A stretch of DNA of 32,000 nt from Candidatus Saccharimonadota bacterium (GTDB lineage: Bacteria > Patescibacteriota > Saccharimonadia > Saccharimonadales > Saccharimonadaceae), in the NCBI GenBank assembly GCA_000503915.1, contig CP006915.1, forward strand, positions 600,001 to 632,000, given 5' to 3'. This document shows positions 5,045 through 16,378 of the stretch, in pieces. Within the stretch, counting starts at the first letter, position 1; each line of letters opens with the position of its first letter. The notes below the pieces were generated by a model. The model made no database searches, was not told where the DNA came from, and worked only from the letters and a program-made list of their open reading frames with translations. The translations under genes and the position numbers were made by a program.

Positions 5045-6679
5045 ATGATCGCTGATATTTCTGTGACCGAAAAATCATTCGGCTCTAAGGTCTTAATGTT
5101 CGGGGTTAAGTTTTCAGTGGATGCCAAAGAAAAAGTCGGCGTGATTGGACGTAATGGCGTCGGTAAAAGTACGCTATTTACTATCTTGACCGGTAAAGAC
5201 ACCGATTTTACTGGTGAAGTCATCTACCGGCGCGGCACCGTCGTCGCCAGTACCGAGCAGGAGCATCATGCCATCGGCGATACGACGGTACTGCAGTATG
5301 TTCTCGCCGGGCTGCCCGAATACAGCGAATTGAGCGATGTCATCGAAACCTATCCGTCCCATATGGGTGACGACATGAAGAAGATCGAAGTCTATACCCA
5401 GGCGCTGGAGCGTTTTGATCAAAAAGGCTTTTATCGGATTGAGGAAGCAATCGAGCGTGAGCTCGAGGCGTTTCAGCTGCCGGGCGTGGCACATGCGCCC
5501 TTCGCTTCCCTGTCGGGTGGTCAGAAACGATTAGTAGAAGTAGTTAAGATTATGCACGCTAAGGCAGATCTCGCCTTGCTCGACGAACCGACGAACCATA
5601 TGGACTACGTGGCGAAAAAACAGTTTATTGACTGGATGAAGGGCACGCCTGAAGCAATGCTTGTCATTACCCACGACCGCGATGTTCTCAGGCATGTTGA
5701 TCGGATTATCGAACTCAAGGATGGCGGCAGTGTTAGCTACAAAGGAAATTACGATGCATATTTAAAACAAAATGCTGCCAGTACCGGCAGCGCGATGAAT
5801 GAGTTTGAACTGATCGAAAAGCGCATCACCAACCTCAAGCAAAAAGTGATCGACTATCAGCGGCTCAAAGAAAAAGCGCGAAACCCGGCGACAATCCAGA
5901 AGTTCAAGCGCCTCGAACAAACCTCTCGAACAGAGCTTGCCGAGTTGCAAACCAAAGAAAAGCCGACCTTTTGGATTGATAAAGAGTCAGTCGATACCCT
6001 GCACTACAAGACAGCGAATCAATATGAAAAGTTCAAAGCCAAAAATATCCGCATGAACATCAAGGGCGAGCAGTCGCGTAGCAAGCATGTCCTTGTCAAG
6101 GCGGAAGCTCTCAGCTTGGGCTACAATAGTCCCCTGTTTGACGGGGTGAATATTGACCTGCGCGAAGGTGAAGCAGTCGAACTGCGCGGTCGTAATGGCA
6201 CGGGAAAGTCGACACTGATCAAGCGGCTACTCGGCGACGAATCAATCACGTTGTTTGGCGGCGAGCTTCAGCACGATCCGCAGGTGCGAATCGGTGTCTA
6301 CGAGCAGGAAGTTTCGCCGACCTATTTTACTCTTCCGCTCCACAATGCGATTGAACACCTGTATCTTGACCGTTCTCTGCCGATCAACGAGACAAAAATC
6401 CGCCAACTTATGAGCGAATATCTATTTACTGAGGGTGACGGCCAGGTACCGGTTAAGCGATTGTCGGGCGGACAGAAAGCCAGGCTACAGCTGATCGCTA
6501 TGTTGGCGAATGATCCGCAACTATTGATCCTTGACGAACCGACAAACCACCTTGATTTGCCGAGTATTGAGGAACTTGAGACGGCACTTGGTCGTTTCGG
6601 TGGTGCTATCTTGTATGTAAGTCACGATGATTATTTCCGCCGGGCAGTACCGGCGACAGTGGCGATGATCGGCGCTTAA
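5045..6679 (+). CDS. ABC-F family ATPase (two ABC domains, no transmembrane domain)
   Basis: Two Walker A sites (GRNGVGKST, GRNGTGKST), two signature motifs (LSGGQKRL, LSGGQKARL), and a charged inter-domain linker. TGcTATACT at 5027-5035 lies 9 nt upstream of the ATG. Confidence 0.9.
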   Translation: MIADISVTEKSFGSKVLMFGVKFSVDAKEKVGVIGRNGVGKSTLFTILTGKDTDFTGEVIYRRGTVVASTEQEHHAIGDTTVLQYVLAGLPEYSELSDVIETYPSHMGDDMKKIEVYTQALERFDQKGFYRIEEAIERELEAFQLPGVAHAPFASLSGGQKRLVEVVKIMHAKADLALLDEPTNHMDYVAKKQFIDWMKGTPEAMLVITHDRDVLRHVDRIIELKDGGSVSYKGNYDAYLKQNAASTGSAMNEFELIEKRITNLKQKVIDYQRLKEKARNPATIQKFKRLEQTSRTELAELQTKEKPTFWIDKESVDTLHYKTANQYEKFKAKNIRMNIKGEQSRSKHVLVKAEALSLGYNSPLFDGVNIDLREGEAVELRGRNGTGKSTLIKRLLGDESITLFGGELQHDPQVRIGVYEQEVSPTYFTLPLHNAIEHLYLDRSLPINETKIRQLMSEYLFTEGDGQVPVKRLSGGQKARLQLIAMLANDPQLLILDEPTNHLDLPSIEELETALGRFGGAILYVSHDDYFRRAVPATVAMIGA

Positions 6680-9462: not shown

Positions 9463-10998
9463 ATGGCTGAACTAAATGTTGCAGAATTATCAAAAGAACT
9501 TCAAAGCGCGATTGCCGGGCTGGAAGGCTCGGAAGGCTTGAAAGACGCCGGTGTCGTCATCCGTGTCGGAGACGGTGTCGCTTGGGTGCATGGCCTGAAA
9601 GAGGCTGGGTACAGCGAGGTGCTTGAAATCGATACCAAGAAAGGCGTCGTTGAAGCATTTGCCCTGAACCTCATGGAAGATGAAATTGGTGCCGTTATCC
9701 TCGGTGATGACAGCCAGGTCGCGGCCGGCGACACGGTTCGTCTAAAAGGTGTTGTACTGGAAGTGCCGGTTGGCGAAGAACTGCTTGGCCGCGTCGTTGA
9801 CCCACTCGGTCGTCCGCTTGATGGCGGTTCGGCGATTAAAACGAAGCGCACCGGCCGTGTTGAGCGTGAAGCTATCGGCGTGATGGGGCGTAAGCACGTC
9901 CATGAACCACTCATGACTGGTATTATGGCGATTGACGCTATGTTCCCGATCGGTCGCGGTCAGCGTGAGCTGATCATCGGTGACCGCCAGACGGGAAAGA
10001 CAGCAATTGTGCTCGATACTATGATCAACCAGTCCAAGCAAAAATCCGGCGTCGTCAACATCTATGTTGCAATTGGACAGAAGCTTTCTAAAGTTGCGCG
10101 TATCGTTGAGCGCCTTAAGCAAGAAGGCGTGATGGAGCAGACCATTGTGGTTGCGACCGGTCCTTCTGACCCAGCTTCGATGCTTTACCTAGCGCCTTAT
10201 GCCGCTACCGCTATGGGTGAATATTTCCGTGATAACAAAGGCCATGCACTGATGGTTTACGACGACTTGTCAAAGCACGCCGTCGCCTACCGCCAGATGT
10301 CGCTACTGCTGCGCCGTCCACCGGGACGTGAGGCTTTCCCCGGTGATGTCTTCTACCTGCACTCTCGCCTGCTCGAGCGTTCGGCGAAGCTTTCCGACGA
10401 TCTAGGTGCTGGCTCATTAACTGCCCTGCCGATCATCGAGACGCAGGCCGGTGACATTTCTGCCTACATTCCGACCAACGTTATTTCGATTACCGACGGT
10501 CAGATCTTTATGGAAACTGATCTGTTTAACCAAGGCATCCGCCCGGCTATCTCGGCTGGTCTGTCGGTCTCTCGTGTCGGTGGTGATGCCCAGACGAAGA
10601 CGGTTAAATCTGTCTCTGGCCATTTAAAACTCGGCCTCTCGCAGTTCCGTGAGCTTGCCAGTTTCGCTCAGTTCGGTTCCGATCTTGACGAAGCGACCAA
10701 AGCGCAGATCGACCGCGGTCAGCGCTTGACTGAACTGCTCAAGCAGTCGCAGTACCAGCCGATGAGCGTTTGGGAACAGACCGCAAGTATTTATGCTGTC
10801 AGTGAAGGTACCTTCGATAGCGTACCGGTTGCCAAGATCAAGGACGCGCAAAGTGCTATGCTTACTAAACTGTGGACCGATCACAAGTCGGAGATGCATG
10901 AGCTCGATAAGGGTGATGAAAAAGTTGGAACAGACAGTCCGGCAGCCAAATTAATCGTCAATGTGGCAAAATCGGTTGCGAAAGGATTTGAAGATTAA
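9463..10998 (+). CDS. atpA: F0F1 ATP synthase subunit alpha
   Basis: GDRQTGKT Walker A, YDDLSKHA, and [21 protein letters not shown]. Confidence 0.97.
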
Positions 10999-15351: not shown

Positions 15352-15531
15352 TTATTCAGCTGCCGGAATGATCTCGGCGCCGTCGCGCTCTTCCCCTTGA
15401 GATTTGTAGAGAATATCAAACAGCGCGGCATCGGAGAGTCCTTGAGCTACTTTTGGCGGCAGCTCAAACTTGAGGTCGCGCAAAACCTCGTCCTGAGTAT
15501 GAATAGCTAGTTGGTCGTGTACCATCGTCAT
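15352..15531 (-). CDS. Hypothetical 59-aa protein (below the ORF-track size cutoff)
   Basis: AAGGAG lies 10 nt upstream of ATG 15531. Product: MTMVHDQLAIHTQDEVLRDLKFELPPKVAQGLSDAALFDILYKSQGEERDGAEIIPAAE*. The stop lies 10 nt before the dus ATG. Confidence 0.5.
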   Translation of the reverse strand: MTMVHDQLAIHTQDEVLRDLKFELPPKVAQGLSDAALFDILYKSQGEERDGAEIIPAAE

Positions 15532-15652
15532 AGTGAGGAGACTCCTTTATGGTATTAAGACATGGGTTGAGTCTTCATAATATCATTTTTTTAGGCAAAA
15601 ATAAAACGCCTCACGCCGGACACGAATCATTATTCATATCGAGTGTGAGACG

Positions 15653-15666
15653 GACAGGAAATAGTG
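15653..15666. repeat. Left copy of a 14-bp perfect inverted repeat (GACAGGAAATAGTG)
   Basis: Exact reverse complement of 16247-16260. An imperfect extension, GTCTC, appears on both sides after a 1-2 nt offset. Confidence 0.8.
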
Positions 15667-15674
15667 GGTCTCAG

Positions 15675-15704
15675 GGGGCGGGATGACCGTAGCCACCCCG
15701 CCCC
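15675..15704 (-). terminator. GC-rich hairpin 6 nt downstream of the 55-aa ORF stop
   Basis: GGGGCGGG (15675-15682) pairs with CCCGCCCC (15697-15704), 8 bp. There is no U tract directly after it. Confidence 0.45.
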
Positions 15705-15710
15705 GCCGGA

Positions 15711-15878
15711 TTACGACTTGGCGCGGCCGTGAATCTTCTGCTCGCCCTTGGACCAGTGGTCGTTGTTACGAACACCTTGGTCGCCACGGTTGTCGTCGAC
15801 CATCCGCTGTTCCTCCGGTGTTCGGGCGGACGGTCGCTTCTTGGCTGCATCGCGAGCATCTTGGATGCTGTACGCCAT
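15711..15878 (-). CDS. Hypothetical 55-aa hydrophilic protein with GC-rich codon usage
   Basis: ATG at 15878 is preceded by GAAAGGGTGA. Product: MAYSIQDARDAAKKRPSARTPEEQRMVDDNRGDQGVRNNDHWSKGEQKIHGRAKS*. Third codon positions are mostly G/C, unlike neighbouring genes. Confidence 0.5.
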   Translation of the reverse strand: MAYSIQDARDAAKKRPSARTPEEQRMVDDNRGDQGVRNNDHWSKGEQKIHGRAKS

Positions 15879-15897
15879 GTGATCACCCTTTCGGGTC

Positions 15898-16157
15898 AAA
15901 ACTCACACGGACGATCCGCGTGAGGCATTGCTGATCAAGCTTGGGCTCCGACGGGCTTTGGGCTTCGGGGTTTCCCATAGCCCGTCGGAGCGGTCTAGCT
16001 GACGGACGAGCCCAGCGCGCAGCGGCAAACAGCCGAGCTCGCCCGTCAGGTCTTGGAGCGGAGCCACCGGACGCATCGCCGGTGGCTCCGCAGAGAAGCG
16101 GGTGTCGAGGGAGACGGGTGACCGATCCATTCCACGGCCATCTTTTACCCACTTCTC
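15898..16157 (-). ncRNA. Array of five consecutive long hairpins (structured RNA or leader) between the tRNA-like element and the small ORF
   Basis: Stems, in plus-strand coordinates: 16093-16103/16147-16157 (11 bp); 16058-16070/16079-16091 (13 bp, perfect); 15999-16011/16037-16049 (13 bp); 15946-15957/15979-15990 (12 bp, perfect); 15902-15910/15916-15924 (9 bp, followed by UUUU). Every non-Watson-Crick position is G-U on the minus strand and A-C on the plus strand. Confidence 0.45.
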
Positions 16158-16159
16158 GG

Positions 16160-16235
16160 TGGGACTGATAGGGTTCGAACCTACGACCTCCACCTAGTAG
16201 TGTGGGTGGTGCTCTTCCTCTTCGGCTACAGCCCC
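16160..16235 (-). tRNA. tRNA-like element, non-canonical; anticodon not assignable
   Basis: GGGGCTG-TA-GCCGAAGAGGAAGAGC-A-CCACC-CACACTACTA-GGTGG-AGGTC-GTAGG-TTCGAAC-CCTAT-CAGTCCC-A. It has a 7-bp acceptor stem, 5-bp anticodon stem, 5-bp T stem and a TTCGAAC T loop. The anticodon loop is 10 nt with no U33 context, the D stem has only 2 pairs, and no CCA is encoded. Confidence 0.6.
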
Positions 16236-16246
16236 TCTAGAGACTG

Positions 16247-16260
16247 CACTATTTCCTGTC
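16247..16260. repeat. Right copy of the 14-bp perfect inverted repeat (CACTATTTCCTGTC)
   Basis: Exact reverse complement of 15653-15666. Lies 11 nt upstream of the 5' end of the tRNA-like element. Confidence 0.8.
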
Positions 16261-16275
16261 AAAATACATTTTGAC
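16258..16275. promoter_or_regulatory. 18-bp palindrome GTCAAAAT-AC-ATTTTGAC (candidate dimeric-protein binding site)
   Basis: Perfect 8+8 inverted repeat with a 2-nt centre. It overlaps the right IR copy by 3 nt. A 2-nt loop is too tight for a favourable RNA hairpin. Confidence 0.4.
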
Positions 16276-16277
16276 GG

Positions 16278-16329
16278 GGAGCGCAGATACCAGCCTGCGA
16301 ATAAGTTCGTAGACTCCTATCCGCGCTCC
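16278..16329 (-). other. Leader hairpin (12-bp stem) between the promoter and the tRNA-like element
   Basis: The minus strand reads GGAGCGCGGATA...TATCTGCGCTCC, with one G-U that would be A-C on the plus strand. An inner CGAA-CTTA-TTCG hairpin is present. Confidence 0.55.
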
Positions 16330-16349
16330 GACCCGCCAAAAGTAGTATT

Positions 16350-16378
16350 ATTTTACTGCAATTGCGCGTATGTGTCAA
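16350..16378 (-). promoter_or_regulatory. Near-consensus sigma70 promoter (TTGACA, 17-nt spacer, TAAAAT)
   Basis: On the minus strand: TTGACA at 16378-16373, 17-nt spacer, TAAAAT at 16355-16350. It starts 1 nt after the helicase stop codon. Predicted start site is near 16343. Confidence 0.65.

Follow-up and report, generated by a model that had tools for sequence, protein, structure and literature searches.

The helicase-dus intergenic region of Candidatus Saccharibacteria RAAC3_TM7_1, the source organism of the window (the whole 32,000-nt stretch of DNA that was analysed), contains a perfect inverted repeat of 14 nt around a tRNA-like element, a set of hairpins and a small open reading frame (ORF). 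The question raised by this locus is whether the repeat acts in DNA, as the ends of a mobile or invertible segment, or in RNA, as a helix that closes a transcript. All coordinates are positions in the window, and L-numbers (L001, L013 and so on) are labels of related loci. The sequence GACAGGAAATAGTG (15653-15666, plus strand) is the exact reverse complement of 16247-16260 with an inter-arm spacing of 580 nt, which bears out the 14-bp perfect repeat claimed in an earlier reading of the window by its letters (the original prediction). In-window statistics alone would not mark the repeat as significant: of 300 dinucleotide-preserving shuffles of the window, 53 hold at least one perfect 14-nt inverted repeat with a spacer of 20-1500 nt; no third copy of the 14-nt arm is present in the window when up to two mismatches are allowed. 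The reality of the repeat as a feature follows from its conservation across species with compensatory changes. The explanation considered likely is that the arms form a selected long-distance RNA helix, termed P1, which closes a self-contained minus-strand small-protein transcript.

In the window P1 is composed of 14 bp and a further 5 bp across a 1/2-nt bulge, and it measures 12-16 bp in other species. The extension is formed by a second complementary segment, GTCTC (15668-15672, minus strand), that pairs with GAGAC and is paired in the minimum free energy (MFE) fold; it is offset from the 14-nt arms by 1 nt on one side (G15667) and 2 nt on the other (TG, 16245-16246). This match had been predicted with GAGAC at 16239-16243, and the match itself stands but the segment lies one nucleotide away, at 16240-16244. 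The extension is window-specific, as no conservation of GTCTC/GAGAC was found in the other species compared. The gaps given earlier between the arms and their neighbours, 11 nt to the 5' end of the tRNA-like element (16235) and 8 nt to the GC-rich hairpin behind the ORF (15675-15704), are both correct.

Covariation of the closing helix

The comparative set was obtained through a Dus search and consists of 80 species-level loci, nearly all of which are labelled as Saccharibacteria or Patescibacteria metagenome-assembled genomes (MAGs). The 5' strand of P1 in the window (16247-16260, minus strand) reads GACAGGAAAUAGUG in the RNA sense, with compensatory changes in at least 26 species, and the 3' strand (15653-15666, minus strand) reads CACUAUUUCCUGUC and lies within the near-invariant block UUCCUGUCCGUCUCAC. 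The conserved 3' block has the form (G)CACUAUUCCUGUC-CGUCUCAC-variable stem-GUGAGRCG-UUUU, and at the loci that carry it a complementary 5' arm is always present 270-955 nt upstream, contig permitting. The arms are species-specific yet complementary, as in the pairs GACGGGAAUGAU/AUCAUUCCCGUC, GACAGGCACAGUGA/UCACUGUGCCUGUC, GACAGGAGUGAAG/CUUCACUCCUGUC, GACAGGAUGGUGCC/GGUACCAUCCUGUC, GACAAGAGAUAGUG/CACUAUCUCUUGUC and GGCAGGAAUGAUACA/UGUAUCAUUCCUGCC. An additional A in the 5' arm of the window is matched by an additional U in the 3' arm. 

Pair counting was performed on 26 distinct sequences, each representing a species. Of the 14 pairs of P1, 11 show changes in both partners, and pairing holds in 96.2% of cells. 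None of 500 shuffles reached the value observed for the whole structure, and controls with slid partners were 30-47% paired compared with 95.4%. Covariation was also recorded in T1, the hairpin behind P1 (helices 2 and 3 of the structure). RNAalifold, unaided by the known structure, predicts both P1 and the hairpin that follows it, T1. Within P1, G·U pairs occur in three independent lineages with no A·C counterpart, while T1 contains U·G at two positions in 14/26 and 16/26 species. A covariance model of the 3' arm together with T1 (R1) scores 54-85 bits on the dus-sense strand versus 18-35 bits on the opposite strand, and the window itself scores 72 bits (E = 3e-14). Because of the wobble pattern and the R1 strand scores, the constraint is placed on RNA in the dus direction, which is the minus strand of the window. 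The sequence comparison demonstrates that, in many species, P1 is under selection as RNA of the dus-sense strand, and it is regarded with high confidence as a real RNA-level feature.

The whole unit has an MFE of -314.6 kcal/mol (z = -8.75) in a fold that pairs the two arms. The eight further species that were folded all have P1 in their minimum-energy structure as well. The minus-strand long-range closing helix put forward in the original prediction is thus backed by covariation in 26 species, strand-specific G·U pairs and the placement of the promoter and terminator described below. Homologous loci that lack the repeat and keep the module were named in that prediction as evidence against it; the reverse was found, since the repeat is kept and the module changes.

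Structure of the predicted transcription unit

The unit is headed by a sigma-70-type promoter (16350-16378, minus strand) in which TTGACA (16378-16373) and TAAAAT (16355-16350) are separated by a 17-nt spacer and 11 of 12 positions agree with the consensus. With a predicted start of transcription near 16343, approximately 83 nt ahead of the 5' arm, and the terminator hairpin immediately behind the 3' arm, both arms fall in one predicted transcription unit. Boxes similar to TTGAC-N17-TAnAAT are found ahead of the 5' arm elsewhere (L005, L009, L084, L087, L089 and the alignment). The leader contains the hairpin L1 (16278-16329, minus strand), in which GGAGCGCGGAUA (16329-16318) pairs with UAUCUGCGCUCC (16289-16278) in the MFE fold. 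Similar hairpins of differing sequence were seen by eye in L003, L047, L027 and L024. Covariation of L1 was not recovered by RNAalifold because leader lengths differ, and the evidence for L1 is therefore visual. A local alternative hairpin (16255-16278, minus strand) can form between CCCGUCAAAAU and AUUUUGACAGG with an 11-nt pairing at 91%, and it is incompatible with the base of P1 because the first 6 nt of the 5' arm are shared. In 7/27 species the leader has a segment of strong complementarity to the 5' arm, and in the others this complementarity is weak.

Both arms have structured elements just inside them, the tRNA-like element or hairpins at the 5' side and a GC-rich hairpin at the 3' side. 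Four near-perfect GC-rich hairpins form an array in the 5' untranslated region (15902-16091, minus strand) at 16058-16091, 15999-16049, 15945-15991 and 15902-15924; an inverted-repeat scan reported one pairing of 13 bp at 100% and one of 18 bp at 94%. The GC-rich hairpin after the stop codon (15675-15704, minus strand) is not followed by a U tract, and comparable strong hairpins precede the 3' arm by 8-15 nt in L005, L010 and L013. When the unit was searched against Rfam 15, at the gathering threshold and then at E <= 10, tRNA was the sole family found and the hairpin array was unmatched. Weak Rfam matches to P17 and microRNA families over the unit were dismissed as chance.

The hairpin T1 (15597-15652, minus strand) adjoins P1 with zero spacer. 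In T1, CGUCUCAC (15652-15645) pairs with GUGAGGCG (15614-15607), and the resulting hairpin (15652-15607) is followed by the U tract UUUUAUUUUU (15606-15597). With this arrangement T1 looks like an intrinsic terminator, and it was missed by a simple terminator scan because its loop exceeds 8 nt. The U tract is missing in 6/26 species (L003, L009, L017, L044, L047, L061) in which the hairpin sequence is retained, and the conservation of T1 is therefore not due to termination alone.

Small open reading frames inside the helix

The small ORF of the window (ORF55; 15711-15878, minus strand) starts with MAYSIQDARDAAKKRPSARTPEEQRMVDD and encodes a hydrophilic protein of 55 amino acids (aa). It is preceded by the Shine-Dalgarno (SD) sequence GGGUGAU (15882-15888, minus strand), which lies partly inside a mini-hairpin, ACCC-GAAA-GGGU (15896-15885). 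When used as a single protein query, ORF55 returned only itself, a hypothetical protein of RAAC3_TM7_1. A profile of family A, to which ORF55 belongs, was built from 19 syntenic relatives and matched 156 clusters, none of which is functionally named; two family A clusters were looked up among the profile matches, and both have their genes in the helicase-dus interval. The small proteins gave no above-threshold match in sequence searches of Pfam, NCBIfam and PDB.

With the exception of a tandem unit in L013, every unit examined carries an ORF of 44-60 aa with a strong SD (GGAGGUGAU). The slot is filled by at least three unrelated ORF families, and closely related species can differ in the family they carry. 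The proteins of family A are hydrophilic, those of family B are Cys-rich and of CxxCxGxG or zinc-ribbon type, and those of family C follow the pattern MCTSxC...KTNLxC...FLASI. The similarities of family B to the DnaJ CXXCXGXG domain and to anti-TRAP were weak and sub-threshold, and a relationship to either was rejected. The cargo family is not correlated with the arm subtype. The shortest cargo, 273 nt in L061, holds the ORF nearly alone, and the hairpin arrays and tRNA-like elements are optional. At the Nanosynbacter-type loci, three unrelated ORF sequences are swapped within flanks of ~90-95% identity, and it is therefore concluded that cargo has been exchanged during evolution. Short contigs with family A ORFs were considered as possible assembled transcripts, but two of the three include a called upstream gene on the same strand. 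These contigs are taken to be ordinary metagenome fragments and are therefore uninformative on RNA ends.

The Nanosynbacter-type loci (alignment A3: L031, L037, L045, L051, L062, L071, L077, L078, L082) have an arrangement of their own. The promoter, leader and SD are conserved in them and the ORF is not inside such a repeat. They also contain a highly conserved structured non-coding stretch of ~640 nt, with two tRNA-like elements and a terminator 25 nt before dus, that could be a separate large RNA.

A hairpin between the SD and an anti-SD sequence, CACCUC-GAGA-GGAGGUG, is conserved in most related loci. The predicted pairing probability of the SD was compared with that of 94 ordinary genes from the same loci, which have a mean of 0.32. 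The 15 ORFs inside a helix have a mean of 0.72 (p = 9e-9) and all 38 small ORFs a mean of 0.62 (p = 4e-11), with a value of 0.53 for ORF55 of the window.

tRNA-like elements

The tRNA-like element of the window (16158-16235, minus strand) has an intact acceptor stem and T arm and a degenerate D stem with two non-canonical pairs. Its 5-bp anticodon stem closes a 10-nt loop, CACACUACUA, because of which no usable anticodon is present, and ARAGORN called the element tRNA-???. The Rfam tRNA model gave 42.2 bits against a gathering threshold of 29 bits, with 9 residues where the model has 6. The element lacks the 7-nt loop, U33 and readable anticodon of a canonical tRNA.

Helicase-dus intergenic regions are rich in tRNA-shaped genes, which score 31-70 bits in Rfam. 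Their anticodon loops show defects such as lengths of 8-11 nt, C33 or A33 in place of U33, A34 "anticodons" and an 8-bp hairpin that replaces the loop, and a D-armless form also occurs; the acceptor and T arms are kept. The closest relatives of ORF55 (L087, L088, L090) have a tRNA-like element with a 9-nt loop just inside the 5' arm. Other loop-defective elements include those at L087 881-958, L013 5349-5423, L086 6245-6322 and L024 4933-5031 and two in L037 (5461-5549 and 5751-5821). Some of these elements are near-identical across several species and are therefore considered to be maintained, not decaying. The acceptor and T arms are the parts of a tRNA that are read by RNase P, RNase Z and the CCA enzyme. 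We infer from these features that the tRNA-like elements may serve as processing signals or tRNA mimics and not as decoders.

Known tRNA-like mimics include mascRNA, the t-elements of plant mitochondria and the tRNA-like domain of the bacterial Y RNA YrlA. The elements described here resemble them in that the acceptor and T arms are kept, the anticodon loop is unusable, and the element lies within a longer transcript with a closing stem nearby. Unlike in YrlA, the closing stem here encloses an mRNA and does not form a Ro-binding site, and there is no rsr neighbour; no YrlA/Y RNA match was found in Rfam at E <= 10 and no Ro/Rsr (TROVE) gene is present within +/-10 kb. A tmRNA was also considered and rejected, as none was identified by ARAGORN or Rfam, the tRNA-like element is in one piece, and the ORFs come with an SD and a start codon.

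Proposed mechanism and alternative explanations

Transcription from the near-consensus promoter would produce, in order, the leader hairpin, the 5' arm, a variable cargo, the 3' arm and T1. The cargo in the window would consist of the tRNA-like element, the four hairpins, the SD-locked 55-aa ORF and the GC-rich hairpin. As the 3' arm emerges it would pair with the 5' arm, displace the shorter local hairpin and loop out the cargo, and the leader hairpin, P1 and T1 would meet at a conserved three-way junction. P1 may in this way clamp or define the ends of a very stable and translationally restrained small-protein mRNA. The most likely route would be processing by an RNase III-type enzyme specific for double strands, giving structured, exonuclease-resistant mRNA ends, and after cleavage the 5' end would be capped by the tRNA-like element or hairpins and the 3' end by the GC-rich hairpin. 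A related alternative is a lock by end pairing, as for the hok and AapA1 mRNAs, in which the transcript would be inert until processed. Bacteria of the candidate phyla radiation are reported to retain RNase III, RNase J and PNPase (PMC12641178). A specific RNase III cleavage step is plausible, and it is held with substantially less confidence than the closing helix as such.

The RNase III stalks of rRNA and of rRNA intervening sequences are similar in that distant complementary sequences loop out a unit, undergo compensatory change and leave structured ends; both strands of P1 likewise lie on the same predicted primary transcript and flank the unit. Some rRNA intervening sequences carry small ORFs. 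Unlike in those stalks, an mRNA and a tRNA-like element are enclosed here in place of rRNA by a helix of 12-16 bp, which abuts a terminator-like hairpin and has a base that is strongly conserved in sequence, and cleavage here is a prediction. 

Several observations weigh against a closing helix that serves to process a small-protein mRNA. R1 was found in 22/80 species-level loci, always at the helicase-dus site, and the rest lack this version of the sequence; other clades are laid out differently or form long-range helices from other sequences. Such other-sequence helices were found in the same intergenic region of L016, L018, L023, L035 and L073, which suggests that the principle is perhaps wider than this sequence version. 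L013 carries a tandem second unit (5064-5739) with its own promoter, leader hairpin, arms AACAGGAAUAGCGU/ACGCUAUUCCUGU and T1 (55.8 bits), which encloses a tRNA-like element and no obvious small ORF, so the helix is not strictly linked to coding. Only about one species in four has a convincing local alternative hairpin. Classical Escherichia coli RNase III substrates are ~20 bp in length (about two helical turns), and P1 is shorter than this unless its coaxial stacking on T1 is counted. Finally, the junction (GACAGG/CCUGUC-CGUCUCAC) is conserved far beyond the needs of pairing. This suggests a sequence-specific partner, and the helix may mainly be a protein-binding scaffold.

Were this last point decisive, the junction of P1, leader and T1 would bind a specific protein or RNA and would not be a processing site, and the cargo would be an insertion tolerated at the tip of P1, similar to the variable expansion segments or intervening sequences of stable RNAs. 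This would account for a junction that is near-invariant while the distal helix and the cargo (273-955 nt in length) vary freely, for the retention of T1 in the six species without a U tract, and for the tandem unit of L013. It is nevertheless held to be unlikely, as Rfam contains no match to a known protein-binding RNA, no partner is known, and all units examined except the L013 tandem unit contain a small ORF with a conserved SD/anti-SD module; from this near-universal module it is argued that the cargo is the point of the unit. Another possibility that was weighed is a type I toxin-antitoxin-like system, in which the ORF would encode a toxin and the mRNA, kept inert by end pairing and SD sequestration, would be activated by processing. 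The full-length folds of the hok and aapA1 mRNAs block translation until processing, and the described properties of both mRNAs agree with those of the unit (PMC5416894; PMC6733600). The unit shares with hok, through its "fbi" pairing, and with Helicobacter pylori aapA1 an ORF of fewer than 60 aa, a highly structured mRNA, pairing between the 5' and 3' ends, a sequestered SD and candidate metastable 5' hairpins that may form co-transcriptionally, and activation would be expected to require processing. However, ORF55 and its family alignment are hydrophilic and charged with no hydrophobic stretch or membrane helix, and other proteins in this slot are Cys-rich. No antisense RNA gene was found, the sole promoter-like site on the plus strand matching at 9/12 positions, which is at chance level. 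The unit also occupies a fixed chromosomal site in single copy across a class and is not a scattered multi-copy addiction module, and T1 shields its 3' arm from simple 3' trimming. For want of membrane toxins and an evident antisense RNA, the unit is not filed as a member of this group although it would work in a similar manner, and a true toxin-antitoxin role is judged distinctly improbable.

The original prediction also raised roles at the DNA level, namely the terminal inverted repeats of a non-autonomous element or the arms of an invertible segment, to which sites for cassette exchange can be added. The perfect inverted repeat surrounds a GC-rich segment (about 62% GC compared with about 47% in the flanks), and its contents differ by species and include unrelated ORF families, which indicates replacement of cargo over evolution. 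The unit is nonetheless present as one copy in the window and, in about 45 loci, remains single-copy with the same two genes on either side. When metagenome contigs were scanned for exact matches to the pattern of the 3' block, 12 loci were identified in which the flanking genes that could be reached are always the helicase or dus, and the block is absent from a collection of viral contigs. BLAST of the unit against phages and plasmids returned only a 31-nt match to a tRNA T arm and no mobile-element relative. As stated earlier, there is no target-site duplication (the flanks are GAGACG and AAAATA) and no recombinase, reverse transcriptase or transposase nearby, which holds over +/-10 kb of called genes. 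No change of orientation was seen among 33 loci or among three independent assemblies of RAAC3_TM7_1, which are identical across the unit. The mismatches of the helix are G·U and never A·C, and cargo has also been replaced in the Nanosynbacter-type loci, where the ORF is outside such a repeat. A DNA-level role is consequently given very little weight. A retron was suggested too, with the repeats as its a1/a2 pair. In common with retron msr/msd regions, inverted repeats close a highly structured region from which RNA is transcribed. The unit differs from a retron in its much larger size (~600 nt), in its locus context and in the translatable, SD-preceded ORF within the ~580 nt enclosed. Neither the window ORFs near the site nor the called genes within +/-10 kb include a reverse transcriptase, and the same layout beside dus without a reverse transcriptase is seen in all species. 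This reading has next to no probability.

The RNA element is absent from Rfam 15, and no description of it was found in the literature searched on Saccharibacteria tRNA-like elements, non-coding RNA, anticodon loops and RNase III. Long-range closing helices are a known device, and the novelty lies in a conserved frame that surrounds exchangeable cargo, both small ORFs and tRNA mimics, at one fixed site in Saccharibacteria. A tentative extension, put forward as speculation, is that this promoter-to-terminator RNA frame, made up of the leader hairpin, the closing helix, the anti-SD lock and the conserved 3' hairpin, is a cassette-like expression site that hosts interchangeable small proteins and tRNA mimics. 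The cargo might then be rapidly exchanged effectors or RNA decoys, possibly with episymbiotic or anti-phage functions, and P1 might control their folding, persistence and release. Saccharibacteria are ultrasmall epibionts with genomes of about 0.8 Mb, in which every retained element is presumably paid for. Here, an RNA architecture whose covariation is unusually clean surrounds a small-protein gene without a match in Pfam, NCBIfam or PDB. It provides a testable case of long-distance mRNA end pairing outside toxin-antitoxin systems and rRNA, and of SD locking combined with non-decoding tRNA-like elements that keep the parts read by processing enzymes, in a bacterial group in which almost nothing is known of post-transcriptional control. 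In addition, more than 150 unannotated small proteins emerge as a family that merits functional study.

Genomic neighbourhood

All genes at the locus are on the minus strand, in the order of a UvrD/PD-(D/E)XK helicase (19730-16380), the repeat-bounded unit, a 59-aa ORF and dus (15341-14310), which encodes tRNA-dihydrouridine synthase. This order from helicase to dus is kept in about 90 related loci. The helicase lies upstream of dus in the 80 species-level loci wherever the contig is long enough, and the intergenic length is 0.45-2 kb, with 43 nt in one locus. The genes within +/-10 kb are of housekeeping type, with no reverse transcriptase, recombinase or transposase among them; their products are RNR, a Crp-like regulator, MscS, a tRNA methyltransferase, the helicase, Dus, a pilin and ATP synthase. 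The region 15600-16250 is a GC island, with 58-66% GC compared with 44-50% in the flanks, and the same trend is present but weaker in related loci. The island is consistent with structural RNA constraints, and the cargo could conceivably be of foreign origin.

The downstream 59-aa ORF (15352-15531, minus strand) lies outside the helix, with an extended -10 box, TGATATTAT (15585-15577, identified by eye), before it and dus after it; the TGnTATTATGAAG box of this ORF is also seen in L013. The small ORF between T1 and dus did not match any family. Equivalent small ORFs of 54-81 aa are present between the terminator hairpin and dus in L006, L010, L017, L023, L024 and L025. Features that recur among the downstream small ORFs are a C-terminus of ...GL(T/S)(Y/F)SA or ...FTD, an AAAGGAG SD and the extended -10 box TGnTATTATGAAG upstream. 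A second perfect inverted repeat of 13 nt (15447-15459 / 16333-16345) would join the predicted 5' end of the transcript to the interior of the downstream 59-aa ORF. It is not conserved in other species and was set aside as probable chance, and pairing of the transcript 5' end with sequence downstream of T1 likewise lacks conservation.

Public annotations contain a 57-aa ORF that overlaps the hairpin array (15903-16193, minus strand) and a 45-aa ORF that overlaps the 3' arm and T1 (15549-15686, plus strand), with counterparts in L001 at 9803-9976 and 10193-10330. Both calls look like artefacts of gene calling on structured GC-rich RNA. L016 (JASLCW010000473.1) is a 5.4-kb contig binned in a MAG of Marmoricola sp. 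(Actinobacteria) that encodes a helicase and dus of the Saccharibacteria type. Its framed locus has the arms ACAGAGAUAGUG, and its placement is probably the result of mis-binning or of an epibiont that was binned together with its host.

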